NCBI GenBank assembly: GCA_027925225.1
Contig: AP027131.1
Location: 420,001-452,000 of the forward strand
DNA: 32,000 nt
Source of the DNA: Candidatus Saccharimonadota bacterium
Lineage (GTDB): Bacteria; Bacillota_I; Bacilli_A; Mycoplasmatales; Hepatoplasmataceae
Direction: 5' to 3'
The notes under the pieces are model-generated. The model had not been told where the DNA came from. It made no database searches and saw nothing but the letters and a program-made list of their open reading frames with translations. The position numbers were made by a program, and so were the translations under genes. Positions within the stretch are counted from its first letter, which is position 1. Every line of letters starts with the position of its first letter. Below are positions 2,150 through 25,406 of this stretch, piece by piece.

Positions 2150-3789
<1,640 letters not shown>

Positions 3790-3802
<13 letters not shown>

Positions 3803-5553
3803 CAATAAAATTTGGCCAAAGCGAACATAAAAGAGTTAATTATTTAAATTTTTATTTTGCAGCAGCTTTGTCTTTTCAAAATTTAATAGGAATCAAAATA
3901 AATAATATAGAAAAAATAAATAAAGAATTTTTAAAAAATGAAGTTTACGAAATAGAAAAGAAGGAAACAAATATAAAAAGAGAATTAACTTTTTTTAAAA
4001 ATGGTTTTCCTTTATATTTCGAAAACAAAAATAAGGAAATCGAAGTTACAAATCTTACAAAAAAAATATTAGAAAATGGAGATAAAAAAATATTTAATGG
4101 AAGAACATATTTGGAAAATGTTTTAATTCTTTATTTAATAAAAAAATATCCAGAAAATGAAATTATTAACAATCCCTTTTTTTGTGCTTTAAATTTTGCA
4201 GAAGAAGAAAAATACACAAAAAAGGAATTTATAGATAAAATTTTTAAATTAAATAAAGAGAAAATACAAAATTATTTAGAACAGATTTCGTTAGATGATT
4301 ATATTAATATCTATTTTAAATTTAAATCAGGAAATCCAGAATCTAAAAAAGATTTAGAAATAAAAAAATTTCAAAATAAAAAAAATGAATTAATAGAAGA
4401 ATTAGCAAGAAATGTTTTATCTAAAAAAAATAATCAAGAAATAGTTTTAAATAAACTTTACATTCTTATAAATGAATATATGAAACTTAGAGATTTAAAA
4501 AAAATAAGTATTTTCCCAAAAACATTTAAAAAAATTTTTCAATTAAAAGATAGTGATTTATATAAATTTATTTTAGATTATGAAAAAAAAGATAAACAAA
4601 AATATTTTGATTTAATAAAAAATATGAATTTTAATTATTTAATAGAAAATTTTTATTTTGAAAATAAAAAAGGCGATTATGGAAATTTAATTTGAAAATA
4701 TCTCATTAATACAAACTTTTTTTTAATTAAAGAAGATAAAATTTCTATAAATCCAAAATGTGAAGAATATATAAATGATTTAAAAAATAATTATTATGAA
4801 ATTTTAAAAATAAAACTTGACGATAAAAACATAATAGAAAAATTTAAAAATTTAAATATAAAAAATAAAGATAACAATGATATTTCTGTTAGAGAAATAA
4901 TAAATGAATATTATAATGAAAATTTTTATAATAATTTTTTTGAAATTATTTCACTCGAAGATGAAAAAATAATTAACAAAAAATTAATAAAACTTGGTAA
5001 TGAAAATCAACATATAAATGGAATCTTAGATGCTCCTACAATTTTTGAATTTATAATAAATTTATTTTTTTTCAAATTATTTTATAAAGAAGAAATTTTA
5101 AATATAAATAAAATTTCAGATGAAGAATTAACAAATAATTTCAAAGAAAGTATTAATACTTATTTAACATCAAATTTAATTCCTCAAAGATTTGCAAGCG
5201 GAGGAAGGTCAGATGCAATTTTTAAAAATCAAGAAATTCTAATAGAACCAACTTTACAAATAAAAAGGCAAGTAAAACATGAATTAAATTCAATAACAGA
5301 TCACTTAAAAAAAGTAGGTTATCATTACTCTGTTTTGGTCGCTCCTAAAATTTCAAATGATTTTTTACCACAAGTCATATCTTATAAAGATTATGATTAT
5401 TCTTGAATAATATTACCTTTTAATACAAATATTTTGATTAAAATAAAAGAATCAGATTATTCTACAGATTTATTTAATGAAATAAAAAATGATTTTAAAA
5501 ATTGCAATACATATAAAGAAGTAAGTAATATATTTAAAAAATATAATAATTAA
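3790..5553 (+). CDS. Putative restriction endonuclease partner of the fused MTase (Type IIS-like, possibly AlwI/MlyI/PleI-type)
   Basis: A 587-codon frame-1 ORF, checked codon by codon from 4681 to TAA 5551-5553. TGA codons at 4693 and 5404 are read as Trp. ATG 3790 overlaps the MTase 3' end by 13 nt. The C-terminal region carries FASGGRSDAIFKNQEILIEPTLQIKRQVKHELNSITDHL, a PD-(D/E)xK-like D...E-x-T-L...Q...E pattern. The family assignment is from memory of RE_AlwI-type enzymes and was not searched. Confidence 0.6.
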
Positions 5554-5632
5554 TTAATTATATTTGTTTTAATTTAATTTAATTTGTGATGTAATTAACT
5601 TATATAAAATAATTAAATTAAGGATATACAAA

Positions 5633-7456
5633 ATGAATAATGATAATAGTGTAGAAAGAAGAACATTAAGTTCATTTTTTACAAATGGTAATATTTACAA
5701 AGTTCCTAGCTATCAAAGAAAATATGTATGAGATGAAAATAATACAGAAAAATTATTTAAAGATTTTGAAAATTTAGTTATGAGCGAAAATTCTAGTGAA
5801 ACACTTTATTTAGGAAATATACTTATTAAAAGTGATGAAAATGAAGATAAATGATTAATTGATGGGCAACAAAGAATAACAACTTTACTTTTATTTTTTA
5901 AAGCATTATATGATGATTATTTTAAAAGAGCATACAAGGAAAATAATCATGATAAGGAAATTGAGGAGGAACTTGAAAATTATATTTATCTAAAAGAAGA
6001 TGCCGATAAAAATATAAGACTTAAAATTAAGGATCTTATAAATGAAGAAAAATTTAAATTAATATTTGAAAAAAAAATTAATATTAATACAATTCCAAAT
6101 AAAAAAATAAAAAATTTAAGTCAATTTCATAAAAATTATTTTACTTTTAGAAAATTAATTGATAATTTTTTTAATAAAAATATTGAATTTGATACATATT
6201 CATTTTTAAAAATTTTTAAAAAAATATGAATAATTAAAATTAAATTAATGAAAAATGATGATGAATTAAAAATTTTTGAAACCTTAAATTCTAGAGGAAC
6301 AATATTACAAGCGGTTGATTTAATAAAAAATTTTTATTTCATTTATACCGATAAAATAAAAAACAATGATGAAAATTTAAATAAAAAAACGAATTATAAA
6401 ATAAAACTTTTTTTTGAAAAAATTCTTCCAGAAACAATTTCTTGAAAAGGCGAAAAAACAAAAGAATTTATAAAATTAATAAAAGAATATATTATTTTTA
6501 AATCTTTAATAAGTGAAAATAATTATAATTTTTCATTACCTAAGGAAAAAGATCCACAAGATTTATATGATAAATTTAAGGAAATTGCAGAAAAAGAATT
6601 TAATTATTTAAAAACAAATAAAGATATTGAAAAATCTATTAATGATTTACATAAATTTCTTTTAATGAAAAAAAATTTAAAAAAATATGAAAATATTAAT
6701 AAAAAATATAATTTTGAAAACTTTGAAATTTCACTTATGATATTTAATAAATTATTTACAGGGTCTCAGTTTTTCCCTATAATTGCACAACTAATGTATA
6801 AAGATAATTTATCTATAGAAGATTTAGAATACTTTAATATTAAAAATATAAATGAAGATTTTAAGAAAGCTGTTTTATATATTGAAAAACTAATTGTAAA
6901 AAGAGAATCTGTACAAAAAGGTACTAGATTAATTACAAGAAACGTAAATAAAATAAAAATAAGATCTTATAATGATATAAAAGAAAAATTTAAGGATTTA
7001 TTACCAAATAACAATGATTTTATTGAAGGTTTAAATTTTAATAATATTTATGAAACAATTCCTAGCGATATTTTAAAAGGAATTCTTTGAAGAATAGAAT
7101 TAAATAAATACGATAAAAAAAGCAATGAAAATATTAATTATCATAATGATAAAGATAAATTTACAATTGAGCATATTTTGCCGCAAAAAATTGAGGATAG
7201 TGTTGAATGAAAAAAAGATTTAGGCGATGATTGAAACTCAATTCATGAAAAATATAAAAATTCATTAGGAAATTTAACAATAACTGGAGAAAACAGTGAA
7301 ATGTCAAATAATCCTTTTAGTATAAAAAAAGCACATTTTTCAAATAGCATCATTAAAATGAATAGAGAAATTTCAAAATTAGAAAAATGAAATAAAGATG
7401 AAATTTTAAACAGAAGAAAAGAATTAATAGATATTTGCTTAGAAATTTGAAATTAA
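5633..7456 (+). CDS. GmrSD-family Type IV (modification-dependent) restriction enzyme, DUF262 + DUF1524
   Basis: Frame-2 ORF from ATG 5633 (aaggat lies 8 nt upstream) to TAA 7454-7456. It joins track pieces 6248..6445 and 6665..7090 through TGA=Trp. N-terminal motifs are YKVPSYQRKYVW, LIDGQQRITTL and IFETLNSRGTILQAVDLIKN (DUF262). C-terminal motifs are FTIEHILPQK ... LGNLTITGENSEMSN (DUF1524 His-Me nuclease). Confidence 0.85.
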
Positions 7457-9636: not shown

Positions 9637-11373
9637 ATGAAAATAATTAAAGGAATAAGTATATCTTCTGGTTTTTCCATTGGTAAATCTTTTTTATTAA
9701 AAGAAGAAAATATAAAAATAAAAGAAGAAAATACAAGAGATAGTAAAAATGAAATAAAAAAATTAAATAATGCAATTAAAGAAGCAAATTCACAGATTAT
9801 AAAAATTAAAAAAAATGTTGAAAAAAAACTTAATGAAGAAGAAGCAAAAATTTTTGATGCACACTTAGAAATTTTAAATGACCCTGAGCTTTTTGAAAAA
9901 ACAAAAGAAATAATTATAAATAATAATAAAAGTGCAAGTTTTGCTTTTAAAAAAGCAAGTGATGAAATTAAAAAAATTTTTGAAACAATAGATAATGAAT
10001 ATATGAGAGAAAGAGTTCTTGATATAACCGATGTTTCAAATCGTTTAATAAAAATATTAGAAGGAATTGAAATAAGAGATCTTTCTCTTATAAGTGAAGA
10101 AACAATAATTATAGCCCGCGATTTAACGCCTTCTGAAATTTCACAATTAGATTCTAGATTTGTAAAAGGTTTTGTCACAGAAATTGGAGGAACCACTTCA
10201 CATTCAGCAATTATTGCTCGAACTTTAGGAATTCCGGCAATTTCTGGAATTGGAAAAAATATCAATTTAATAAAAAATAATGAAAAAGTACTATTAAATG
10301 CAAAAGATGGAATTTTAATTTTAGATCCCCAGAAGGAAGAAATTGAAAATTTTGAAGCAAAAAAAAATAAATATGAAGAAATAAAAAAAGAAGAAGATAA
10401 ATTTATAAATATAAGTCCCACTACAAAAGATAATTGAAAAACAAAAATAGCTGTAAATATTGGAAATTTAGAAGATTTAAACAATTATAAAAAATTAAAT
10501 ATTGATGGTGTTGGTTTATTTCGTACAGAATTTTTATATATGAACTCAGATAAATGACCAACAGAAGAAGAACAATTTAATGTATATAAAAAAATCCTTG
10601 AAACAGTAAATATAAATAATGAAACAGTTGTTATTAGAACATTAGATATTGGAGGAGATAAAAAATTAAAATATTTTAATTTTCCAAAAGAAGAAAATCC
10701 TTTTTTAGGTTATCGTGCTATAAGATTAAGCTTAGACAAAAAGGATATTTTTATTACACAAATTCGTGCATTATTGCGTGCATCAAAATTTGGAAATCTT
10801 GCAATTAATCTTCCAATGATTGCAACAATCGATGAATTAAAAGAAGTCAAAAAAATAATAAAAAATACTGAAAATGAATTAATTAAAGAAGGACAAAAAA
10901 TAAATAAATATCAGATTGGTATGATGGTAGAAGTACCGTCAGTTGTTGAGCTTGCTGACAAATTTATAAAATATGTAGATTTTTTTTCAATTGGAACAAA
11001 TGATTTAATTCAATATACTTTTGCAGTAGATAGATTATCAGAAAAAGTTGCTTATTTATATCAACCTTTAAATCCTACAATTTTAAGAATGATTTATAAG
11101 ATAATCAAAACTTCTCATGAAAATAATAAGTGAACTGCAATTTGTGGTGAACTTGCAAGAGAAACAAAACTGATACCTATATTTATTGCTATGGGATTAG
11201 ATGAATTTTCTATGTCTGCTTCGTTTATCTTGAAAATACGTAGAATTTTTTCAAAAATTAGCAAAAAGGAAAGCGAAAAAATATTAGAACAAATTTTAGA
11301 TTCCGAAACAGAAAAAGAAGTAAGCAATTTAATTGATAAATTTTTTAAAGAAAATAATATTTCTTATTATTAA
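9637..11373 (+). CDS. ptsI: PTS Enzyme I (phosphoenolpyruvate-protein phosphotransferase)
   Basis: A frame-1 ORF of 578 aa that joins 9637..10437, 10774..11133 and 11191..11373 through TGA=Trp. It has the active-site His region [18 protein letters not shown], the PEP-binding region GTNDLIQY, and the catalytic Cys in [12 protein letters not shown]. Confidence 0.95.
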
Positions 11374-11397
11374 ATAATATATTCATAAAATATAAAT

Positions 11398-11806
11398 ATG
11401 TTTTGTATAAAATTAAAAAAATTTTCTATTTTTTTTCTTTTTTAAGAAGTGTTGGGAATCTTTATTTTAAAAATAAAGATTCTTTTAATTATCAAAATAA
11501 TCCTGAAGGTAATATATATATATATATATAAATCAAAATTTATTGAAAAAAATGGTAATGAATACACTTATGAAATAAAAGGATTAAATGATGAGACAAG
11601 TTATACATTTTATTCACTAGAAAATACAAAACTTTCAATAAACGATAGAACAAATCCAATTGATGAAGAAATAATATTAGAAGAAAATTTAGGAATTGAT
11701 TCATCCTTTTATTATTGGTATCTTTATTCTTATAAGAATTTTAAATAGAAATAAAAGAGAAAAAAGAATTTAATGAATTATTAAACGAAGATATAAAATC
11801 TAAATA
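11398..11806 (+). pseudogene. Decayed, internally deleted remnant of the arrayed surface-protein family
   Basis: ATG 11398 opens a signal-peptide-like frame that stops after 15 codons at T-rich tracts. The family N-terminus (GNLYFKNKDSFNY) sits in another frame, abutting a (TA)9 tract. That tract joins directly to the last family module (KSKFIEKNGNEYTYEIKGLNDETSYTFYSLENTKLSIN...). A further out-of-frame deletion removes the FLIFKTEKTKIP..TM segment. The family 3' end ...gaagatataaaatctaaataa is retained at 11786-11806. Confidence 0.65.
11512..11530 (+). repeat. (AT)9A dinucleotide tract at the deletion junction of the remnant copy
   Basis: Direct read: gaaggtaatatatatatatatatataaatcaaa. The homologous site in intact copies reads gaaggtaatacatataaatcaaa (e.g. 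15185-15207). Confidence 0.9.
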
Positions 11807-11880
11807 AATTCTTAATCTTATTAAAGATACAAAAAACAATAATTATAACAAAAAAATAAAAAATATTATATAATTTATTT

Positions 11881-13680
11881 ATGATAAGATTAAAGAATTT
11901 ATATTTTTTGTTTTCTTTTTTTATAATTTTTACTTTTTTTTGAGGTAGCGGTAATCTTTATTTTAAAAATAAAGATTCTTTTAATTATGAAAATAATTCT
12001 TCTTTACAAGATGTTAATGATTTAAATAATCCTTATATTGAAAAAAATGGTTTTGAAATAAACAGCTGAGAGGCAGAAACTTCCTCTGTAATTTTTACTT
12101 TAACTATTGTAGGTGATTGAATAGTTAAACCTATAAATGTTTCACTTTATAATGATGAAGAATTAATTTCTGTAACCGCAAACAATATAAGCTCTCATGT
12201 TATTGATACAGATAATAATGAAGTAGAATATGGATATAGAATACAAGGATTAGATATTGCCAATAGCAATGAATACACTTTTTATTCTTTAGATAATACA
12301 AATTTAGCAATAGAAGATAATGGCGATTCTATTGATGATCAAATTTTGCTTAGCGAAGAATTGAATGTTACAAATGAACTTACATTTAGTTTAAGTACTA
12401 CTAATAATGCTTATACTAGTGATAATAATAGTAGTGGTAAAGGAGAAGTAGGAATATTTAGAACTTCTAATAAAGATGTTGTTTTTAGCATTTTAATATC
12501 AGACAATTGAGCTGTTCAAGACAGTTTACGTCTTATTTTGCGGCGTAATTTAAATGGAGTTGTTTCTAAGTTTAATGTTAATGCTAATTTATTATATGAA
12601 GAAGATTTAGAGGGTGAATTTACTAGATTTTATTATGTTATTACTGATAATACTAGTCATATAGTAGCAGGCACAAGTTATAAATTTTTTGTTGATACAA
12701 TTTATGCATCAGCTTGTCTAGCATTAGGAGAATCTACTAATGTAGTAAAAGATATTGCAGTTGACAATAATTCTTTTTCCTTTGAAAATCCTTACATAGT
12801 GGAAAATAGCTTTGAAATTTTAAATGATTCAACTGATTATTCAATAAAATTTCAAATAGGTTTAATAAATAATCAACATAAAGATTTTGACACTTCTTCA
12901 CCATTAAATGTGACACTAAAAGATATAGAAGGAAATAATTATTCAACAACTGCAAATTATGTAAGCGTGGGTTCAGAAAGTAATACTTATATTTATGAAA
13001 TAACAGAACTTGAAAATAATAAACCTTTAAATATTAGCACTAATTATTCTATTTTTTCAATAGATAATGAATGACTTGCTGTTGGAAGTAATATAAATGA
13101 TATTGATAATGAAATTTTAATAGAAGATGATTTGGGCGCAGAAGGGAATTTTACAACTGCTAATGCTTATATTATAGAAAATGGTTTTAAAATTGTTGAA
13201 TATAATGATACATCTGTAAAATATGCAATAACTGTAGAAGGGTGAGAAAATGATTATAAAAATTATGAAAATGAAATTGATGTAAGATTAATTTCTGAAG
13301 ATAATTCCGAAGGTGAAATATATCAATCAAAATTTATTGAAAAAAATGGTAATGAATACACTTATGAAATAACAGGATTAAATGAGGAGACAAGTTATAC
13401 ATTTTATTCACTAGAAAATACAAAACTTTCAATAAATGATAAAGCAACGCCAATCGATGAAGAAATAATCTTAGAAGAAGATTTAGGAATTTATTCATCC
13501 TTCTTAATATTTAAAACAGAGAAAACAAAAATCCCAAGTTATGTTTGAATAATATTAGCAATAATAATTATGTTAATAATTATTATTGGTATCTTTATTC
13601 TTATAAGAATTTTAAATAGAAATAAAAGAGAGAGAGAAGAGTTTAATGAATTATTAAACGAAGATATAAAATCTAAATAA
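11881..13680 (+). CDS. Arrayed surface protein, copy A (intact, 599 aa): signal peptide, 4 modules, C-terminal TM anchor
   Basis: Frame 1 from ATG 11881 to TAA 13678-13680, with only TGA (Trp) internal stops. N-terminus MIRLKNLYFLFSFFIIFTFFWGSG has no Cys lipobox. C-terminus is ...FKTEKTKIPSYVW-IILAIIIMLIIIIGIFILIRIL-NRNKREREEFNELLNEDIKSK. It contains track ORF 12538..13074. Confidence 0.85.
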
Positions 13681-13753
13681 CTTCTTAATCTTATTAAAGA
13701 TACAAAAAATGATCATTATAACAAAAAAATAAAAAATATTATATAATTTATTT

Positions 13754-15555
13754 GTGATAAGATTAAAAAATTTATATTTTTTGTTTTCTTTTTTTATAAT
13801 TTTTACTTTTTTTTGAGGTGGCAATAATCTTTATTTTAAAAATAAAGATTCTTTTAATTATGAAAATAATTCTTCTTTACAAGATGTTAATGATTTAAAT
13901 AATCCTTATATTGAAAAAAATGGTTTTGAAATAAACAGCTGAGAGGCAGAAACTTACTCTGTAATTTTTACTTTAACTATTGTAGGTGATTGAACAATTG
14001 AACCTATAAATGTTTCACTTTATAATGATGAAGAATTAATTTCTGTAACTGCAAGCAATATAAGCTCTCATGTTATTGATACAGATAATAATGAAGTAGA
14101 ATATGGATATAGAATAGAAGGATTAGATATTACTAATAGCAATGAATACACTTTTTATTCTTTAGATAATACAAATTTAGCAATAGAAGATAATGGTGAT
14201 GCTATTGATGATCAAATTTTGCTTAGCGAAGAATTGAATGTTACAAATGAACTTACATTTAGTTTAAGCACTACTAATAATGCTTATATTAGTGATAATG
14301 GTAATGGTCAAGCAGAAATAGAAATATTAAGAACTTCTCTAGTCAATATGTTGTTTTTAGTCTTTTAATATCAGACAACTGAGCTGTTCAAGATAAATTA
14401 TATCTTCATATAAGTCGCGTTAAGTCTCAAACTTCCTCTGCTTTTAGTATATACAGTTATTTTTTATTTGAGGAAGATTTAGAGGGCGAATTTAATAAAT
14501 TTTATTATTTTATTGATGCTAATGATGCTAGTGCAATGGTTGCAGGTAAAAGTTATACTTATCATTTTAAAGAAATTTATTCAATTTCTTACTTAGCATT
14601 AGAATCTAATAGAGCAATAAAAACTATTCCAATAGGAGGTAATAGTTTTTATTTTGAAAGTCCTTACATAGTAGAAAATAATTTTGAAATTTTAAATGAT
14701 TTAACTGATTATTCAATAAAATTTCAAATAAGTGTAGTAAATAATGATTCTGGAGATTTTGATCCTTCTTCACCATTAAATGTGACACTAAAAGATATAG
14801 AAGGAAATAATTATTCAACAACTGCAAATTATGTAAGTGCGGGTTCAGAAAGTAATACTTATATTTATGAAATAACAGAACTTGAAAATAATAAACCTTT
14901 AAATGTTAGCACTAATTATTCTATTTTTTCAATAGATAATGAATGACTTGCTGTTGGAAGTAATATAAATCCAATTGATTTAGAAATCTTAATTACTGAT
15001 CAATTAAATGGTGATGGAAATTTTAAAACTGCTAATGCTTATATTTTAGAAGAAGGTTTTAAAATTGTTGAATATAATGATACATCTGTAAAATATACAA
15101 TAACTGTAGAAGGATGAGAAAATGATTATAAAAATTATGAAGAAAATGAAATTTATGCAAAATTAATTTCTGAAGATAATGCTGAAGGTAATACATATAA
15201 ATCAAAGTTTATTGAAAAAAATGGTAATGAATACACTTATGAAATAACAGGATTAAATGATGAGACAAGTTATACATTTTATTCACTAGAAAATACAAAT
15301 CTTTCAATAAATGATAAAGCAGCACCAGTTGATGAAGAAATAATATTAACAGAAGATTTAGGAATTGATTCATCCTTCTTAATATTTAAAACAGAGAAAA
15401 CCAAAATTCCAAATTATGTTTGAATAATATTAGCAATAATAATTATGTTGATAATTATTATTGGTATCTTTATTCTTATAAGAATTTTAAACAGAAATAA
15501 AAGAGAAAGAGAAGAGTTTAATGAATTATTAAACGAAGATATAAAATCTAAATAA
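13754..15555 (+). pseudogene. Arrayed surface protein, copy B, disrupted by a net +2 frameshift near 14339-14347
   Basis: GTG 13754 (frame 2) reads normally until acttct|ctagtcaatatgttg, where other copies have acttct|aataaagatgttg. It then stops at TAA 14366-14368. The homologous reading continues in frame 1 (open from 14305; first ATG 14536 = track ORF 14536..14946) to TAA 15553-15555. The footprint is 1802 nt against 1800 in intact copies. Confidence 0.75.
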
Positions 15556-15576
15556 AGAATGTTATATAATTTATTT

Positions 15577-17376
15577 ATGATAAGATTAAAAAATTTATAT
15601 TTTTTGTTTTCTTTTTTTATAATTTTTACTTTTTTTTGAGGTAGCAGTAATCTTTATTTTAAAAATAAAGATTCTTTTAATTATGAAAATAATTCTTCTT
15701 TACAAGATGTTAATGATTTAAATAATCCTTATATTGAAAAAAATGGTTTTGAAATAAAAAGTTGAGAAGCAGAAACTTCCTCTGTAATTTTTACTTTAAC
15801 TATTGTAGGTGATTGAATAGTTAAACCTATAAATGTTTCACTTTATAATGATGAAGAATTAATTTCTGTAACTGCAAGCAATATAAGCTCTCATGTTATT
15901 GATACAGACAATAATGAAGTAGAATATGGATATAGAATACAAGGATTAGATATTACTAATAGCAATGAATACACTTTTTATTCTTTAGATAATACAAATT
16001 TAGCAATAGAAGATAATGGTGATTCTATTGATGATCAAATTTTACTTAGCGAAGAATTGAATGTTACAAATGAACTTACATTTGATTTAAGTACTACTAA
16101 TAATGCTTATACCAGTGATAGTGCTAATAACGGTCAAGGAGAAGTAAAAATATTAATAACTTCTAATAAAAATGTTGTTTTTAGCATTTTAATATCAGAC
16201 AACTGAGCCGTTCAAGACAAATTATATATTAATATTCAGCGTAATTGAACTGGAAGTGTTCTTAGGTTTAATGTTTATGCTAATTTATTATATGAAGAAG
16301 ATTTAGAGGGTGAATTTACTAATTTTTATTATGTTATTACTGATAATAATAATAATATAGTACCAGGTACATATTATAGTTATAAGGTTCATTATGTTTA
16401 TTCGCCAGCTTATCTAGCATTAAGAGAATCTAGTAATGTAGTAAAAGATATTGTAATAGACACTAATACTTTTTACTTTGAAAGTCCTTACATAGTGGAA
16501 AATAGCTTTGAAATTTTAAATGATTCAACTGATTATTCAATAAAATTTCAAATAGGTTTAATAAATAATCGCCATAAAGATTTTGATCCTTCTAAATCCT
16601 TAAATGTAACATTAAAAGATATAGAAGGAAATAATTATTCAACAACTGCAAATTATGTAAGTGCGGGTTCAGAAAGTAATACTTATATTTATGAAATAAC
16701 AGAACTTGAAAATAATAAACCTTTAAATGTTAGCACTAATTATTCTATTTTTTCAATAGATAATGAATGACTTGCTGTTGGAAGTAATATAAATGATATT
16801 GATAATGAAATTTTATTAGAAGATGATTTGGGAGCAGAAGGTAGTTTTACAACTGCTAATGCTTATATTTTAGAAGAAGGTTTTAAAATTATTGAGTATA
16901 ATGATACATCTGTAAAATATACAATAACTGTAGAAGGATGAGAAAATGATTATAAAAATTATGAAAATGAAATTGATGTAAGATTGATTTCTGAAGATAA
17001 TTCTGAAGGTGATATATATCAATCAAAATTTATTGAAAAAAATGGTAATGAATACACTTATGAAATAACAGGATTAAACGATGAGACAAGTTATACATTT
17101 TATTCACTAGAAAATACAAAACTTTCAATAAATGATAAAGCAACGCCAATTGATGAAGAAATAATATTAACAGAAGATTTAGGAATTGATTCATCTTTCT
17201 TAATATTTAAAACAGAGAAAACCAAAATTCCAAATTATGTTTGAATAATATTAGCAATAATAATTATGTTAATAATTATTATTGGCATAATTATTCTTAT
17301 AAGAATTTTAAATAGAAATAAAAGAGAAAAAAGAGAGTTTAATGAATTATTAAACGAAGATATAAAATCTAAATAA
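15577..17376 (+). CDS. Arrayed surface protein, copy C (intact, 599 aa)
   Basis: Frame 1 from ATG 15577 to TAA 17374-17376. It includes track ORFs 16495..16770 and 16984..17244, joined by TGA=Trp. The architecture matches copy A, with a unique central cassette. Confidence 0.85.
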
Positions 17377-17450
17377 CTTCTTAATTTTATTAAAGATATA
17401 GAAAAACAATAATTATAACAAAATAATAAAAAATATTATATAATTTAGTT

Positions 17451-19226
17451 ATGATAAGATTAAAAAATTTATATTTTTTGTTTTCTTTTTTTATAATTTT
17501 TACTTTTTTTTGAGGTAGCAGTAATCTTTATTTTAAAAATAAAGATTCTTTTAATTATGAAAATAATTCTTCTTTACAAGATGTTAATGATTTAAATAAT
17601 CCTTATATTGAAAAAAATGGTTTTGAAATAAACAGCTGAGAGGCAGAAACTTACTCTGTAATTTTTACTTTAACTATTGTAGGTGATTGAACAGTTGAAC
17701 CTATAAATGTTTCACTTTATAATGATGAAGAATTAATTTCTGTAACTGCAAGCAATATAAGCTCTCATGTTATTGATACAGATAATAATGAAGTAGAATA
17801 TGGATATAGAATAGAAGGATTAGATATTACTAATAGCAATGAATACACTTTTTATTCTTTAGATAATACAAATTTAGCAATAGAAGATAATGATGATGTT
17901 ATTGATGATCAAATTTTACTTAGCGAAGAATTGAATGTTACAAATGAACTTACATTTGATTTAAGCACTACTAATAATGCTTATACTAGTGATAATAATA
18001 GTAGCGGCAAAGGAGAAATAGAAGTATTAAGGACTTCTAATAAAGATGTTGTTTTTAGTGTTTTAATATCAGACAATTGAGCTGTTCAAGACAGTTTATA
18101 TCTTCATATTGAGCGTCATTGAAGTGGAAGTGTTTCTAGATTTAGTGTTTATGCTAATTTATTATATGAAGAAGATATAGGGGGTGAATTTACTAAATTT
18201 TATTATGTTATTCATGATACTTCTGGAGCAATAGAACCAGGTACATATTATAATTATAGAATTGAGTATATTTATTCAACAGCTCATCTAGCATTAGGAG
18301 GATCTACTAATGTAGCACAAAATATTACAATAGACACTAATATTTTTTACTATAACAGTCCTTATATAGTAAATAATAGTTTTGAAATTTTAAATGATTC
18401 AACTGATTATTCAATAGAATTTCAAATAGGTTTAATAAATAATAGCCATGCAGATTTTGACGCTTCTTCACCATTAAATGTGACACTAAAAGATATAGAA
18501 GGAAATAATTATTCAACAACTGCAAATTATGTAAGCACGGGTTCAGAAAGTAATACTTATATTTATGAAATAACAGAACTTGAAAATAATAAACCTTTAA
18601 ATGTTAGCACTAATTATTCTATTTTTTCAATAGATAATGAATGACTTGCTGTTGGAAGTAATATAAATGATATTGATAATGAAATTTTAATAGAAGATGA
18701 TTTGGGCGCAGAAGGGAATTTTACAACTGCTAATGCTTATATTATAGAAAATGGTTTTAAAATTGTTGAATATAATGATACATCTGTAAAATATGCAATA
18801 ACTGTAGAAGGGTGAGAAAATGATTATAAAAATTATGAAAATGAAATTGATGTAAGATTAATTTCTGAAGATAATTCCGAAGGTGATATATATCAATCAA
18901 AATTTATTGAAAAAAATGGTAATGAATACACTTATGAAATAACAGGATTAAACGATGAGACAAGTTATACATTTTATTCACTAGAAAATACAAAACTTTC
19001 AATAAATGATAAAGCAACGCCAATTGATGAAGAAATAATATTAACAGAAGATTTAGGAATTGATTCATCCTTCTTAATATTTAAAACAGAGAAAACCAAA
19101 ATTCCAAGTTATGTTTGAATAATATTAGCAATAATAATTATGTTAATAATTATTATTGGCATAATTATTCTTATAAGAATTTTAAATAGAAATAAAAGAG
19201 AAAAAGAGAGTTTAATGAATTATTAA
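17451..19226 (+). CDS. Arrayed surface protein, copy D (591 aa; cytoplasmic tail altered by an A6->A5 frameshift)
   Basis: Frame 0 from ATG 17451. All modules and the TM helix are intact. The poly-A run is A5 at 19201-19205, against A6 in copies C, E, F and G. This shifts the tail to ...NRNKREKESLMNY, stopping at TAA 19224-19226 instead of the family stop at 19247-19249. Confidence 0.75.
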
Positions 19227-19270
19227 ACGAAGATATAAAATCTAAATAAAGGATATTATATAATTTATTT

Positions 19271-21070
19271 ATGGTAAAATTAAAAAATTTATATTTTTTG
19301 TTTTCTTTTTTTATAATTTTTACTTTTTTTTGAGGTAGCGGTAATCTTTATTTTAAAAATAAAGATTCTTTTAATTATGAAAATAATTCTTCTTTACAAG
19401 ATGTTAATGATTTAAATAATCCTTATATTGAAAAAAATGGTTTTGAAATAAACAGCTGAGAGGCAGAAACTTCCTCTGTAATTTTTACTTTAACTATTGT
19501 AGGTGATTGAATAGTTAAACCTATAAATGTTTCACTTTATAATGATGAAGAATTAATTTCTGTAACCGCAAACAATATAAGCTCTCATGTTATTGATACA
19601 GATAATAATGAAGTAGAATATGGATATAGAATACAAGGATTAGATATTGCCAATAGCAATGAATACACTTTTTATTCTTTAGATAATACAAATTTAGCAA
19701 TAGAAGATAATGGCGATTCTATTGATGATCAAATTTTGCTTAGCGAAGAATTGAATGTTACAAATGAACTTACATTTAGTTTAAGTACTACTAATAATGC
19801 TTATACTAGTGATAATAATAGTAGTGGTAAAGGAGAAGTAGGAATATTTAGAACTTCTAATAAAGATGTTGTTTTTAGCATTTTAATATCAGACAATTGA
19901 GCTGTTCAAGACAGTTTACGTCTTATTTTGCGGCGTAATTTAAATGGAGTTGTTTCTAAGTTTAATGTTAATGCTAATTTATTATATGAAGAAGATTTAG
20001 AGGGTGAATTTACTAGATTTTATTATGTTATTACTGATAATACTAGTCATATAGTAGCAGGCACAAGTTATAAATTTTTTGTTGATACAATTTATGCATC
20101 AGCTTGTCTAGCATTAGGAGAATCTACTAATGTAGTAAAAGATATTGCAGTTGACAATAATTCTTTTTCCTTTGAAAATCCTTACATAGTGGAAAATAGC
20201 TTTGAAATTTTAAATGATTCAACTGATTATTCAATAAAATTTCAAATAGGTTTAATAAATAATCAACATAAAGATTTTGACACTTCTTCACCATTAAATG
20301 TGACACTAAAAGATATAGAAGGAAATAATTATTCAACAACTGCAAATTATGTAAGCGTGGGTTCAGAAAGTAATACTTATATTTATGAAATAACAGAACT
20401 TGAAAATAATAAACCTTTAAATATTAGCACTAATTATTCTATTTTTTCAATAGATAATGAATGACTTGCTGTTGGAAGTAATATAAATGATATTGATAAT
20501 GAAATTTTAATAGAAGATGATTTGGGAGCAGAAGGGAATTTTACAACTGCTAATGCTTATATTTTAGAAGAAGGTTTTAAAATTGTTGAGTATAATGATA
20601 CATCTGTAAAATATACAATAACTGTAGAAGGATGAGAAAATGATTATAAAAATTATGAAAATGAAATTGATGTAAGATTAATTTCTGAAGATAATTCCGA
20701 AGGTGAAATATATCAATCAAAATTTATTGAAAAAAATGGTAATGAATACACTTATGAAATAACAGGATTAAATGAGGAGACAAGTTATACATTTTATTCA
20801 CTAGAAAATACAAAACTTTCAATAAATGATAAAGCAACGCCAATCGATGAAGAAATAATATTAACAGAAGATTTAGGAATTGATTCATCCTTCTTAATAT
20901 TTAAAACAGAGAAAACCAAAATTCCAAGTTATGTTTGAATAATATTAGCAATAATAATTATGTTAATAATTATTATTGGCATAATTATTCTTATAAGAAT
21001 TTTAAATAGAAATAAAAGAGAAAAAAGAGAGTTTAATGAATTATTAAACGAAGATATAAAATCTAAATAA
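19271..21070 (+). CDS. Arrayed surface protein, copy E (intact, 599 aa)
   Basis: Frame 2 from ATG 19271 to TAA 21068-21070. It contains track ORF 19928..20464, whose protein is identical to 12538..13074 of copy A. Confidence 0.85.
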
Positions 21071-21091
21071 AGGATATTATATAATTTATTT

Positions 21092-22895
21092 ATGGTAAAA
21101 TTAAAAAATTTATATTTTTTGTTTTCTTTTTTTATAATTTTTACTTTTTTTTGAGGTAGCGGTAATCTTTATTTTAAAAATAAAGATTCTTTTAATTATG
21201 AAAATAATTCTTCTTTACAAGATGTTAATGATTTAAATAATCCTTATATTGAAAAAAATGGTTTTGAAATAAACAGCTGAGAGGCAGAAACTTACTCTGT
21301 AATTTTTACTTTAACTATTGTAGGTGATTGAACAGTTGAACCTATAAATGTTTCACTTTATAATGATGAAGAATTAATTTCTGTAACCGCAAGCAATATA
21401 AGCTCTCATATTATTGATACAGATAATAATGAAGTAGAATATGGATATAGAATAGAAGGATTAGATATTACTAATAGCAATGAATACACTTTTTATTCTT
21501 TAGATAATACAAATTTAGCAATAGAAGATAATGGTGATGTTATTGATGATCAAATTTTACTTAGCGAAGAATTGAATGTTACAAATGAACTTACATTTGA
21601 TTTAAGTACTAATAATAATGCTTATACCAGCGATAATAATAGTAGCGGTAAAGGAGAAATAGGAATATTTAGAACTTCTAATAAAGATGTTGTTTTTAGT
21701 ATTTTGATATCAGACAACTGAGCCGTTCAAGACAATTTACATCTTATTTTGCGGCGTAATTTAAATGGAAATATTTTTACGTTTAGTGTTTATGTTAATT
21801 TATTATATGAAGAAGATTTAGAGGGTGAATTTACTAAATTTTATTATGTTATTAATGATGGTGATAGCAATTCAATAGAACCAGGTACAAATTATAAATT
21901 TTTTGTTGATACAATTTACTCATCAGCTTATCTAGCATTAGGAGAATCTACTAATGTAGTAAAATCTATTGCAATTGACAATAATTCTTTTTCCTTTGTG
22001 AGTCCTTACATAGTGGAAAATAGTTTTGAAATTTTAAATGATTCAACTGATTATTCAATAAAATTTCAAATAGGTTTAGTAAATGATCAAAATGGAGATT
22101 TTGATACTTCTTCACCATTAAATGTGACACTAAAAGATATAGAAGGAAATAATTATTCAACAACTGCAAATTATGTAAGCACGGGTTCAGAAAGTAATAC
22201 TTATATTTATGAAATAACAGAACTTGAAAATAATAAACCTTTAAATGTTAGCACTAATTATTCTATTTTTTCAATAGATAATGAATGACTTGCTGTTGGA
22301 AGTAATATAAATGATATTGATAATGAAATTTTAATAGAAGATGATTTGGGCGCAGAAGGGAATTTTACAACTGCTAATGCTTATATTATAGAAAATGGTT
22401 TTAAAATTGTTGAATATAATGATACATCTGTAAAATATGCAATAACTGTAGAAGGGTGAGAAAATGATTATAAAAATTATGAAAATGAAATTGATGTAAG
22501 ATTAATTTCTGAAGATAATTCCGAAGGTGATATATATCAATCAAAATTTATTGAAAAAAATGGTAATGAATACACTTATGAAATAACAGAGATTAAACGA
22601 TGAGACAAGTTATACATTTTATTCACTAGAAAATACAAAACTTTCAATAAATGATAAAGCAACGCCAATTGATGAAGAAATAATATTAACAGAAGATTTA
22701 GGAATTGATTCATCCTTCTTAATATTTAAAACAGAGAAAACCAAAATTCCAAGTTATGTTTGAATAATATTAGCAATAATAATTATGTTAATAATTATTA
22801 TTGGCATAATTATTCTTATAAGAATTTTAAATAGAAATAAAAGAGAAAAAAGAGAGTTTAATGAATTATTAAACGAAGATATAAAATCTAAATAA
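21092..22895 (+). pseudogene. Arrayed surface protein, copy F, +1 frameshift at ~22589; predicted product lacks the membrane anchor
   Basis: Frame 2 from ATG 21092 (contains track ORF 21749..22288). At 22586-22594 it reads acagagatt where all other copies read acaggatt. The frame then runs ...YEITEIKRWDKLYILFTRKYKTFNKW and stops at TAA 22655-22657. The homologous frame (0) continues to the family stop at 22893-22895. Confidence 0.75.
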
Positions 22896-22916
22896 AGAAT
22901 GTTATATAATTTATTT

Positions 22917-24716
22917 GTGATAAGATTAAAAAATTTATATTTTTTGTTTTCTTTTTTTATAATTTTTACTTTTTTTTGAGGTGGCAATAATCTTTATTTT
23001 AAAAATAAAGATTCTTTTAATTATGAAAATAATTCTTCTTTACAAGATGTTAATGATTTAAATAATCCTTATATTGAAAAAAATGGTTTTGAAATAAACA
23101 GCTGAGAGGCAGAAACTTACTCTGTAATTTTTACTTTAACTATTGTAGGTGATTGAACAGTTGAACCTATAAATGTTTCACTTTATAATGATGAAGAATT
23201 AATTTCTGTAACTGCAAGTCATATAAGCTCTCATATTATTGATACAGATAATAATGAAGTAGAACATGGATATAGAATAGAAGGATTAGATATTACTAAT
23301 AGCAATGAATACACTTTTTATTCCTTAAATAATACAAATTTAGCAATAGAAGATAATGGCGATGCTCTTGATGATCAAATTTTAATTAGTGAAGAATTGG
23401 ATGTTACAAATGAACTTACATTTGATTTAAGTACTACTAATAATGCTTATGCAAGCGATAATAATAGTAGTGGCAAAGGAGAAATAGTAGTATTTAGAAC
23501 TTCTAATAAAGATGTTGTTTTTAGTGTTTTAATATCAGACAATTGAACTGTTCAAGACAGTTTATATCTTCATATTCAGAAGAATTGACCTGGAACTTTT
23601 ACTAAGTTTAGTGTTAATGCTAATTTATTATATGAAGAAGATATAGGGGGTGAATTTACTAGATTTTATTATGTTATTCCTGATATTTATGGTGCAATAG
23701 AACCAGGTACATATTATAGTTATAGAATTGATTATATTTATTCAACGGCTCGTCTAGCATTAGGAGGACCTACTAATGTAGTAAAAAATATTACAATAGA
23801 CACTAATGTTTTTTACTTTGACAGTCCTTACATAGTGGAAAATAGTTTTGAAATTTTAAATGATTCAACTGATTATTCAATAAAATTTCAAATAGGTTTA
23901 ATAAATAATAGACATAAAGATTTTGATACTTCTTCACCATTAAATGTGACACTAAAAGATATAGAAGGAAATAATTATTCAACAACTGCAAATTATGTAA
24001 GCACGGGTTCAGAAAGTAATACTTATATTTATGAAATAACAGAACTTGAAAATAATAAACCTTTAAATGTTAGCACTAATTATTCTATTTTTTCAATAGA
24101 TAATGAATGACTTGCTGTTGGAAGTAATATAAATGATATTGATAATGAAATTTTAATAGAAGATGATTTGGGCGCAGAAGGGAATTTTACAACTGCTAAT
24201 GCTTATATTATAGAAAATGGTTTTAAAATTGTCGAATATAATGATACATCTGTAAAATATGCAATAACTGTAGAAGGGTGAGAAAATGATTATAAAAATT
24301 ATGAAAATGAAATTGATGTAAGATTAATTTCTGAAGATAATTCCGAAGGCGATATATATCAATCAAAATTTATTGAAAAAAATGGTAATGAATACACTTA
24401 TGAAATAACAGGATTAAACGATGAGACAAGTTATACATTTTATTCACTAGAAAATACAAAACTTTCAATAAATGATAAAGCAACGCCAATTGATGAAGAA
24501 ATAATATTAACAGAAGATTTAGGAATTGATTCATCCTTCTTAATATTTAAAACAGAGAAAACCAAAATTCCAAGTTATGTTTGAATAATATTAGCAATAA
24601 TAATTATGTTAATAATTATTATTGGCATAATTATTCTTATAAGAATTTTAAATAGAAATAAAAGAGAAAAAAGAGAGTTTAATGAATTATTAAATGAAGA
24701 TATAAAATCTAAATAA
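22917..24716 (+). CDS. Arrayed surface protein, copy G (intact, 599 aa, GTG start)
   Basis: Frame 0 from GTG 22917 to TAA 24714-24716. It contains track ORF 23835..24110. Only TGA codons interrupt it. Confidence 0.8.
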
Positions 24717-24878
24717 AGAAAATAATAAAAGTAAAAAAGTGTTTTATAAATTTAATTTTATTAATAAAAATTAGTAATAATTGTCTTCTAAAAAAAGAAA
24801 AGTATTAAAATTAATTTGGGTTAAAATTAGGATTTTATTTTTAAAATTCTATGTTCCCTTATTTATTTTTATTTTTTT

Positions 24879-25406
24879 ATGAAAATTATGAAAAAAAAAG
24901 AAAAAGATATTCTTGTTTACTCACCAGCAGATGGGAAAATTGTAGATATTAAAAAAGTTCCTGATGAAACTTTTTCACAAGAAATGATAGGAAAGGGTAT
25001 TGCAATAAAAATAAATTCTCCTTATATTTATTCACCAATAAAAGGAAAAGTAGAAGCCGCTTTTAGAACAGGTCATGCTTATGGTATTAAAACTAAATAT
25101 GGACCTTCAATACTATTACATATAGGCGTTGATACTGTCGCTTTAAATGGCGAAGGTTTTCTAAGGTTAATCATGCAAGGAGAAAAAGTAAAACCAAAAA
25201 GTAAATTAGCAAGAGTTAATTGAGAAATACTCAAAAAAGCAAAATCTTCAGAAACATTAGTAATTGCAACTAATGATTCAATGGAGGGCTACGAAATAGA
25301 AATGGTTGCTAAAATTGGCCAAAAAGTAACAAAAGATGATGTTCTCTTCAAAATAATAGAAAAAAAAGAAAAAGATAAAAAAGAGGAAAAAAAAGATGGA
25401 AATTAA
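24879..25406 (+). CDS. crr: PTS glucose-family EIIA component
   Basis: Frame 0 from ATG 24879 (alternative ATG 24888) through TGA 25221 (Trp) to TAA 25404-25406. EIIA-Glc motifs: VPDETFSQEMIGKGIAI, the two-His site FRTGHAYGI and LLHIGVDTVALNGEGF. Confidence 0.88.

Follow-up and report, generated by a model that had tools for sequence, protein, structure and literature searches.

A tandem family of predicted adhesin-like genes with gene-conversion mosaics and a divergent cassette in Candidatus Hepatoplasma vulgare

The Opa proteins of Neisseria are paralogs whose hypervariable blocks, HV1 and HV2, face outward and whose framework is exchanged by recombination, and together they form a repertoire of binding specificities. 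They are outer-membrane beta-barrels, phase-variable via a pentamer repeat, and their genes are scattered in the genome. Amp, a surface protein of phytoplasmas, is membrane-anchored, with its central part exposed. Positive selection on Amp has been reported and read as host recognition, not as antibody escape, in the passage of PMC3143171 that cites Kakizawa 2006. Among mycoplasmas, Vpma (M. agalactiae), Vsp, Vsa, and Vlp are clustered families of surface lipoproteins with highly conserved 5' ends and divergent bodies (PMC5634654, PMC2268961). Xer1-type site-specific inversions or promoter tracts switch their genes, and the variable parts are mostly repeat blocks. For the Hepatoplasmataceae, giant repetitive beta-sandwich ORFs have been proposed as host-adhesion candidates; that genome paper covers three to four giant ORFs and makes no mention of a 600-aa seven-gene family, of pseudogenes, or of gene conversion (PMC10928387). 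Our literature search for earlier descriptions of the array reported here in Hepatoplasma found none.

The array, from a 32,000-nt stretch of the Ca. Hepatoplasma vulgare genome (the window), is a new example of a well-known type, the variable families of surface proteins. Like Vpma, Vsp, and Vsa, it is a cluster of Mollicute paralogs that share a conserved 5' region and a signal sequence, and it occupies a sizeable part of a tiny genome. Unlike those lipoproteins, its products lack a lipobox Cys and have a C-terminal transmembrane (TM) anchor. Its genes lie on one strand, in a window that holds no recombinase or inverted repeat of the Vpma/Vsp/Vsa kind, and they vary by point substitutions in a predicted beta-sandwich instead of by repeat blocks. 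Segmental gene conversion between members is shared with MgPa/MgPar, vlhA, VlsE, Msp2, and pilE/pilS, but the window shows no layout of a single expression site served by truncated promoterless donors, and all seven copies are full-length. As in Opa, full-length paralogs recombine a conserved frame and concentrate their diversity in short hypervariable blocks, whereas the array encodes tandem beta-sandwich proteins of a wall-less bacterium and shows no repeat-based switch. As with Amp, a Mollicute surface protein meets arthropod tissue; Amp, however, is single-copy and was compared between strains, whereas the present genes stand in tandem as seven copies, their flanks evolve in concert, and their products are predicted to have four FN3-like domains; the two have no detectable sequence relationship.

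The seven tandem genes (HPAVJP_3650-3720) are each ~1.8 kb long and encode products of ~600 aa under code 4 (TGA=Trp); read with table 11, the ORFs of the same region are broken up. All lie on the forward strand. Paralogs A (HPAVJP_3650-like; 11881..13680; 599 aa), C (HPAVJP_3680; 15577..17376), E (19271..21070), and G (22917..24716; GTG start or an upstream ATG) are intact. HPAVJP_3680 is annotated from an upstream ATG at 15559, giving 605 aa, and paralog C matches it at 100% identity (P0001). Three of the seven copies carry frameshifting indels, all of them outside the cassette described below. Paralog B (13754..15555; GTG start), the most divergent copy, has a 2-bp (TC) insertion near 14336 that shifts the frame, so it is either a pseudogene or the site of an assembly error. 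Paralog D (HPAVJP_3690; 17451..19226; 591 aa) has lost 1 bp from an A-run near 19201, which alters the cytoplasmic tail alone, and paralog F (HPAVJP_3710; 21092..22657; 521 aa as called) has a 1-bp insertion near 22590 that truncates it ahead of the TM anchor, although homology runs on to ~22894. The assembly is ONT-based and polished, and the three frameshifts may reflect either mistakes in it or genuine decay. Each of the seven full-length copies has a start codon with a TATAAT 7-8 nt upstream, and the copies agree at 92-100% over their first ~500 nt. An internally deleted eighth copy (11422..11806, forward strand) keeps the 5' end and ~370 nt of the 3' end and lacks the cassette. By blastn, this remnant matches nt 37-177 of the unit at 76%, nt 1436-1631 at 93%, and nt 1700-1874 at 93-95%; TRF places an (AT)9.5 run at 11512-11530, close to its deletion junction.

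The array was inserted, specifically in this lineage, between ptsI (9637..11373, forward strand) and crr, which encodes PTS EIIA-Glc (24879..25406, forward strand). In related genomes ptsI directly adjoins crr; both a sister lineage and H. scabrum have crr directly after ptsI, and the spacer at 24790-24880 matches the ptsI-crr spacer of the sister lineage. The location falls within a glycolysis/PTS gene cluster, which may point to high expression. Relatives of the family are few, with nine word-based matches and 18 representatives among 1.84 billion proteins. A protein scan of public genome contigs gave no matches, and arm-pattern scans of genome and metagenome contigs gave neither matches nor copies of the sequences that flank the cassette. 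The sister lineage has a three-domain homolog (P0014; 41% identity), apparently in single copy.

The products are predicted to be adhesin-like, membrane-anchored surface proteins. Their layout comprises an N-terminal signal/TM helix, four FN3/Ig-like beta-sandwiches, a C-terminal TM anchor, and a short charged tail. The full-length AF2 model, of medium confidence (pLDDT 69.8), has a helix at residues 4-24, all-beta domains, and a helix at 559-604, and its best Foldseek matches are tandem FN3/Ig adhesins, namely 6xi3 (4.5e-8), the RTX-adhesin extender 4p99, and FdeC (4e9l). The similarity to these tandem FN3/Ig arrays is at the level of the fold, and TM-scores are low (0.13-0.36) because of inter-domain geometry. 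The paralog matches no Pfam family and does not reach the gathering score of fn3 (PF00041) or a related profile; a neighboring paralog or relative scores 23.3 bits for FN3, below the cut-off of 25. No copy has a lipobox Cys, and the N-terminus, MIRLKNLYFLFSFFIIFTFFWGSSNLYFKNKD, contains no Cys.

The copies have exchanged segments by conversion. The nearest neighbor of a copy switches along the gene: A equals E over nt 121-1200, then equals D, F, and G, and then lies nearest to B. The tract shared by A and E spans 1,080 nt and includes the cassette. The PHI test detects recombination in the whole gene (p = 0.001) and likewise in the C-flank. These patterns in the alignment mark the flanks as gene-conversion mosaics.

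A far more divergent segment lies inside these mosaics. In copy A, the 267-bp cassette occupies 12523..12789 on the forward strand, i.e., codons 215-303, and covers strands C to G of the second, divergent FN3-like beta-sandwich at about codons 166-305. The alignment bears out the cassette boundaries that had been drawn by eye for all seven copies (C, 16219-16485; D, 18093-18359; E, 19913-20179; F, 21734-22003; G, 23559-23825), except that the cassette of B (14395-14661) starts at 14395 and not at ~14398; that of F (270 bp) has one codon more than the others. Strong divergence between conserved surroundings, as the same reading had described, is evident: mean pairwise nucleotide identity is 0.78 in the cassette, 0.91 in the adjacent codons (166-214 and 305-351), and 0.97 in the far flanks, and mean pairwise protein identity of the cassette is 0.58. 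Variable amino-acid columns make up 68/90 of the cassette versus 88/511 elsewhere (Fisher p=2e-27), and variable columns are distributed over the three codon positions as 36:37:17 in the cassette versus 26:13:34 in the flanks. The zone of high divergence is broader than the cassette, rising near codon 166 and lasting to about codon 350 (~166-351), so that the two "arms" are short conserved islands within it. They had been described as conserved in every copy; the match is exact in five of seven copies per side, but B and G on the left and B and D on the right have 1-4 mismatches. Copies A and E share one and the same cassette, which leaves six versions in all, and D and G are not the closest pair, contrary to what had been proposed. 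The identity of A and E, and even the number of copies, could have been affected by the assembly of a 13-kb tandem array.

Within the cassette, variation respects a pattern expected of a beta-strand. A hydrophobic scaffold (LLYEEDxxGEF, FYYVI, YLAL) is conserved, and alternating and loop residues vary. Earlier described as fixed, the scaffold is kept in general, but copy B has FLFEED and FYYFI in place of LLYEED and FYYVI. Variability within strands shows a lag-2 periodicity of +0.36, and large hydrophobic residues occupy 64% of invariant versus 25% of highly variable positions (p=0.012). The polar character and strand periodicity of the variable residues are consistent with surface exposure. 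The cassette domain is colinear with the canonical repeat of the same proteins, with a weak hhalign score (E=0.09), and a domain-only AF2 model (pLDDT 50.5) was too poor for a fold search.

The sequence-only reading had taken the differences between D and G, 22 replacement and 2 silent codons, as the signature of diversifying selection. We reproduced this count exactly (with 65 codons identical), but its meaning changes with the composition of the genome, which has 20% GC and uses code 4. The synonymous share of mutational opportunity is ~0.105 by maximum likelihood (ML) versus 0.21 by Nei-Gojobori counting. With silent changes making up just ~10.5% of those possible in coding sequence, the neutral expectation is ~8.5:1, and 22:2 is no proof of dN/dS>1 (binomial p=0.53; omega ~1.0 for the pair). 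More generally, at 20% GC neutrality alone yields a replacement-to-silent ratio of ~8:1, so that by-eye counts and the Nei-Gojobori method overstate dN/dS about two-fold. Nei-Gojobori values of 1.9-3.75 were discarded for their bias; when empirical codon frequencies are used in ML, the fraction of synonymous sites is halved and omega falls to 0.9-2.0.

The formal estimates for the whole cassette lie neither clearly above nor clearly below 1. Under GY-F3x4, with target-codon frequencies, omega is 1.19 (95% CI 0.70-2.54; LRT vs 1 = 0.24), and under MG-F3x4, with target-nucleotide frequencies, it is 2.03 (LRT 4.64). Outside the cassette, omega drops to 0.15 (0.09-0.26) for the adjacent codons and to 0.18 for the far flanks, and the cassette value is thus ~8-fold higher than either. 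On the tree, dS amounts to 0.27 for the far flanks and 0.47 for the cassette, with the adjacent zone highest at 1.12; cassette dN is 3-fold above that of the adjacent zone, even though its dS is lower. Among site models, M2a beats M1a in the cassette with an LRT of 12.5-19.5 and 25-40% of sites at omega ~5. The minimum over 15 topologies, 12.5, falls on the best tree, where ~25% of cassette codons are at omega ~5; all 14 other topologies give higher values, the MG parameterization gives 19.5, and the parametric-bootstrap p is ~0.015. When the whole gene is fitted, nine of 14 high-posterior sites fall in the cassette. These tests, which model single-nucleotide changes, rest on only five independent cassettes of 89 codons, within which PHI detects no recombination (p=0.30-0.44). 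On the recombining flanks, the same M1a/M2a comparison gives LRTs of 8-9, due to 1-2 codons, so the test is liberal on these paralogs. The claim of diversifying selection hence draws partial support, from the preference for M2a over M1a and from the ~8-fold contrast in omega, but not from the 22:2 count, which is neutral. Under GY, the more conservative model, the cassette-wide omega does not exceed 1 significantly. Statistically, the evidence that the cassette is under positive selection is moderate, not strong.

We consider it reasonably probable that the array is a lineage-specific tandem family of adhesin-like proteins in which conversion homogenizes the flanks while the cassette of domain 2 is diversified. 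One gene would have been amplified in tandem at a single site, giving seven copies and a deleted remnant, and recombination between the copies, by gene conversion or unequal exchange, would repeatedly overwrite most of the gene. Such overwriting would explain why the outer ~500 and ~750 nt stay ~97% identical and form visible mosaics. The central zone (codons ~166-351) seems to be far less homogenized, and within it purifying selection appears to have lapsed in the 89-codon cassette alone, where omega is about 1.2-2 versus 0.15 in the neighboring codons. The genome would thus keep a standing set of six alternative forms of a single exposed face, and probably all of them could be expressed together.

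The most serious competitor is relaxed constraint alone: a tolerant part of domain 2 would drift near-neutrally on its scaffold, conversion would unify the rest, and no positive selection would be involved. The confidence interval of the cassette-wide omega, which spans 1, fits this account, as do the pairwise comparisons, none of which gives an omega significantly above 1 (every LRT <=1.4) and in which omega is ~1.0 for D-G and A-F, the most similar pairs that are informative. The liberal behavior of the site-model test on the flanks points the same way, and a partition into scaffold and non-scaffold positions, defined with outgroups and uninformative in itself, gives omega 1.1-1.4 in both classes, with no separation and no class of omega>1. 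On the other hand, M1a is exactly this model, and it was rejected under both codon parameterizations; PHI sees no recombination within the cassette that could inflate that test. A region that merely drifted would also sit uneasily with a 3-fold higher dN at a dS below that of the adjacent zone, and with the absence of stop codons from the cassettes of all copies, where free drift predicts 3-7. On balance, we regard drift under relaxed constraint as unlikely, though well short of negligible.

Programmed antigenic or phase variation, as in pathogenic mycoplasmas, would have one copy on at a time, through inversion, promoter tracts, or conversion from silent cassettes. In its favor, this Mollicute has surface-protein paralogs clustered in tandem, their 5' ends nearly identical; mosaic conversion occurs among the copies, A and E, being identical, demonstrate copying of a cassette, and the frameshifts in B, D, and F occur at short repeats (TCTC, an A-run, and AGAG) that are potential on/off switches. 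Yet all copies are on the forward strand, each with its own start codon and TATAAT, and there is no promoterless partial cassette, since the sole truncated copy, the remnant, lacks the cassette. The missing lipobox Cys and a host without adaptive immunity count against it as well, and the frameshifts may be ONT errors. No switch machinery was found in the window: its ORFs include no recombinase or transposase, and when inverted repeats and a promoter able to invert were sought, only low-complexity matches in AT-rich, TM-coding DNA came up. A promoter scan of this AT-rich DNA was uninformative (162 sites versus 130 expected), and no terminators were found. We judge a programmed switch improbable.

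An assembly or polishing artefact, in which a strain mixture or mis-polished ONT reads fake paralog differences or inflate the copy number, seems more improbable still. The assembly combined metaFlye/Flye, Medaka, and POLCA, the sample contained another Hepatoplasma in greater abundance, the authors had to patch the rRNA regions, and the indels lie in low-complexity contexts. Against this, the cassette differences are in-frame and codon-structured, respect the scaffold and the beta periodicity, and yield a coherent tree; each copy has a distinctive flank mosaic, and a homolog with the same domain occurs in an independent assembly. Targeted mutagenesis by a diversity-generating retroelement or similar, which variation at codon positions 1 and 2 within a sharply bounded ~270-bp block might suggest, was rejected as scarcely credible, given that adenine occupies only 33-44% of variable columns per copy where a template should approach 100%, that the substitution spectrum is mixed and includes all base pairs, that the window has no reverse transcriptase, and that the arm sequence is absent elsewhere in public collections.

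If the diversified-cassette reading holds, the diversity would be favored by a variable counterpart, which could be something on the gut surface of the host, its lectins or immune effectors, or phages. The sequence-only reading had spoken of an exposed epitope and of serum reactivity, a framing that does not fit an isopod host; because isopods lack antibodies, a ligand-, lectin-, or phage-facing surface makes more sense. It is conceivable, and we put it forward tentatively, that a gut ectosymbiont of a host without adaptive immunity very recently amplified one adhesin-like gene, within its ptsI-crr operon, into a non-switching, "express-them-all" repertoire driven by host surfaces, lectins, or phages and not by antibody escape. 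Hepatoplasmas cover the surface of the woodlouse midgut gland, and the array is a sharper adhesin candidate than the giant beta-sandwich ORFs: it takes up ~2% of the 662-kb genome, is lineage-specific, lies among PTS and glycolysis genes, and focuses its diversity in one domain. Should the selection signal prove true, it would make recognition between symbiont and host, or between symbiont and phage, accessible to testing in a system that lacks antibodies. The homolog P0014 of the sister lineage is most diverged in the cassette region, with 24-34% identity versus 52% for domain 1.

The window has a GC content of ~20%. Its reading with translation table 11 gives broken open reading frames; with code 4 (TGA=Trp) it yields long genes, among them an array of seven (copies A to G), each ~1.8 kb and arranged head-to-tail at 11881-24716. 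At 100% identity, one array gene matches HPAVJP_3680 of the pill bug (Armadillidium vulgare) mollicute Candidatus Hepatoplasma vulgare Av-JP, known from a metagenome-assembled genome (PMC10928387). The family goes unmentioned in that genome paper (PMC10928387), no Pfam family was found for the paralog, and its 18 representatives among 1.84 billion proteins are all Hepatoplasma-like. The array is hitherto undescribed and is of a well-known kind: a family of surface-protein paralogs in which a hypervariable exposed block sits in a concertedly evolving frame.

We aligned the seven copies with MAFFT. Identity is 92-100% in the outer parts of the gene (5' ~500 nt and 3' ~750 nt), with a trough between. 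Mean pairwise identity in the cassette (codons 215-303; 12523-12789 in copy A, 14395-14661 in copy B) is 0.78 for DNA and 0.58 for protein; for DNA it rises to 0.91 in the codons next to the cassette and to 0.97 in the far flanks. Of the cassette positions, 68/90 vary, versus 88/511 elsewhere (p=2e-27). The feature is real, and the sequence-only reading, which had located it correctly in every copy, was accurate with minor errors. Its closest pair, D and G, is not the closest, since A and E share one cassette sequence within ~1080 nt of complete identity, leaving six cassette versions. The arms it called near-identical are broadly conserved but imperfect in B, D, and G (1-4 mismatches), and of the scaffold it called fixed, LLYEED and FYYVI are altered in copy B, although the scaffold is otherwise conserved. 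A further small patch of variation (NNQHKDFDTSSP and variants; copy A 12871-12909, codons 331-343, and equivalents) falls in a loop predicted for domain 3, and its sites 333 and 335 are 2 of the 14 high-posterior sites of the whole-gene fit.

A recount of D versus G gave exactly the 22 replacement and 2 silent codon differences previously read as the signature of diversifying selection. Nei-Gojobori counting, which takes synonymous sites as ~21%, gives cassette dN/dS values of 1.9-3.75 among A, C, D, F, and G. Under codon models (code 4, F3x4 or F61 frequencies, single-nucleotide substitutions only), synonymous changes make up only ~10.5% of the mutational opportunity, and the neutral expectation is therefore ~8.5 replacement changes per silent change. 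Neutrality thus predicts a ratio like 22:2 (D-G omega ~1.0, binomial p=0.53), and pairwise cassette omega, at 0.9-2.0, is significantly above 1 in no pair.

On a tree of the five distinct copies other than B, hence only five independent sequences, with dN and dS as tree totals, omega was 1.19 in the cassette (95% CI 0.70-2.54, spanning 1; dN 0.56, dS 0.47), 0.15 in adjacent codons 166-214 and 305-351 of the same zone (0.09-0.26; dN 0.17, dS 1.12), and 0.18 in the far flanks, codons 1-165 and 352-600 (dN 0.05, dS 0.27). An MG-style parameterisation raised cassette omega to 2.03 (LRT versus 1 = 4.64). With omega at about 1.2-2 versus 0.15-0.18 elsewhere, the cassette is clearly released from purifying selection when compared with all of its surroundings. 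Stop codons are absent from every cassette, where free drift predicts 3-7 nonsense changes.

Site models moderately favour selection. For the cassette, M2a versus M1a gave an LRT of 12.5 (GY) to 19.5 (MG), with a minimum of 12.5 over all 15 topologies, and 2/200 parametric bootstrap replicates under M1a reached 12.49 (p ~0.015); the same LRT on the recombining flanks was also 8-9, due to one or two codons. The selected class, 25-40% of cassette codons at omega ~5, is moderately supported. An outgroup-defined partition of cassette codons did not tell omega classes apart. Positive selection on a subset of cassette sites is moderately supported, at a ~1-3% level that is not secure. The earlier interpretation is partly supported: it gains from formal site models, but the count on which it was built equals the neutral expectation for this genome.

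Several observations bear on how the frame stays uniform. First, in a nearest-neighbour analysis with 90-nt windows, copy A equals E over nt 121-1200, equals D/F/G over 1201-1380, then equals E again, and is closest to B at its 3' end; the first 120 nt are common to the pairs B/G, C/D, and E/F. Second, PHI detected recombination across the gene as a whole and within its C-flank (p=0.001) and none inside the cassette (p=0.30-0.44). Third, dS in the far flanks reaches roughly one-fourth of the central-zone value. Recombinational mosaicism of the tandem family is evident from these patterns, and mosaics with low flank dS point to gene conversion or unequal exchange between the tandem genes. The central zone (codons ~166-351) is homogenised less, making the low-conversion zone wider than the cassette. 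Within this zone, excess replacement is confined to the cassette, which argues against old divergence alone. Copy B, whose cassette differs from the others by dS ~1.3-2 at omega 0.25-0.5, is therefore an old, constrained lineage that homogenisation has largely bypassed. It alone has extra divergent tracts outside the cassette, at gene nt 1224-1270 and 1400-1460 (~14976-15022 and ~15152-15212).

An AF2 model (9-sequence alignment, mean pLDDT 69.8) places four all-beta domains between an N-terminal helix and a long C-terminal one, the latter spanning the hydrophobic stretch YVWIILAIIIMLIIIIGIIILIRIL and a charged tail. Foldseek matched tandem FN3/Ig proteins, the bacterial adhesins 6xi3, 4p99, and 4e9l among them. 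The architecture is thus a beta-sandwich array with a TM anchor. The cassette covers the latter portion of domain 2, which aligns colinearly but weakly with the canonical repeat of the family; a domain-only structure model was too poor for use. Variability within predicted strands has a lag-2 autocorrelation of +0.36, and large hydrophobics occupy 64% of invariant positions versus 25% of positions with >=3 states (p=0.012). This indirect evidence fits variable residues on predicted exposed faces and loops over a conserved core. HPAVJP_3560 (3-2084), a related surface protein, has the same FN3-like repeats and a C-terminal anchor. Its two 360-bp internal repeats, 97% identical (tandem repeat 739-1422), are another case of recent duplication or homogenisation within a gene.

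We suggest that several copies would be expressed together, that the variable residues would form one exposed face, and that interaction with host surface molecules, lectins, immune effectors, or phages would favour their diversity. The "epitope" and "serum reactivity" frame is inapplicable, as the host is an isopod. As far as visible, an expression-site/silent-cassette system is out, every copy being full-length with its own start; TATAAT lies upstream of each, at 7-8 nt. A Vpma/Vsa-type inversion switch is excluded by the missing lipobox, the single orientation, and the lack of a recombinase or real inverted repeats in the window (PMC5634654). A DGR is likewise out, with adenine occupying only 33-44% of the variable columns of each copy, substitutions of every type, and no reverse transcriptase found in the window.

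The array occupies the ptsI-crr spacer (11374-24830) in the order pgi, ptsI, [array], crr, ptsH, fba, eno, pfk, pyk. In a sister lineage whose PtsI is 85% identical (Logan ERR14127475), as in Ca. H. scabrum, crr and then ptsH directly follow ptsI (comparison loci L002 7975-8108 and L003 9722-9773), and the sequence just 3' of copy G matches the sister-lineage spacer. Because of this direct junction and matching spacer, the comparison identifies the array as a lineage-specific insertion and amplification. An eighth copy, an internally deleted remnant, lies between ptsI and copy A (11422-11806), with ~76% identity at its 5' end, ~93% over its 3' ~370 nt, and the middle, including the cassette, gone; a perfect (AT)9.5 run (11512-11530) sits near its deletion junction. 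The sister-lineage homolog P0014 (L001, Logan ERR14127475_8930, 151-1635; 494 aa, three domains, 41% identity) looks single-copy, has unrelated neighbours, and includes a domain recognisably equivalent to the variable one, its cassette region being most diverged (24-34% versus 52% for domain 1). A P0014-type gene is a candidate for the ancestral form before amplification.

Junctions of two kinds suggest three putative transcription units, A, B-C, and D-G: ~70-nt spacers with an ATAACA-18-TATAAT match precede A (11806-11880), B (13681-13753), and D (17377-17450), and ~21-nt stop-to-start gaps precede C (15556-15576), E (19250-19270), F (21071-21091), and G (22895-22916). Three frameshifting indels, all outside the cassette in short-repeat contexts, affect copies B (TC inserted in TCTC at ~14336-14337, splitting the gene in two), D (one A lost from an A-run at ~19201, altering the cytoplasmic tail only), and F (A inserted giving AGAG at ~22590, with loss of the TM anchor). 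The source assembly was ONT-based (metaFlye/Flye, Medaka, POLCA), from a sample that also held a second, more abundant Hepatoplasma. The indels may be real decay, on/off switches, or leftover ONT errors in a hard-to-polish repeat.

A defence island (2150-7456), 4 kb upstream of the array, comprises a double methyltransferase, a 587-aa protein that lacks Pfam hits and is probably the nuclease partner, and a GmrSD-type restriction enzyme, and its gene order is the same in a sister-lineage contig (L002 2-4262). A perfect (AG)15 run (3232-3261) within the fused N6_N4 + D12 adenine methyltransferase frame sits between both methylase domains, encodes ERERER..., and, as a methylase repeat of this type, is a classic candidate for phase-variable expression.
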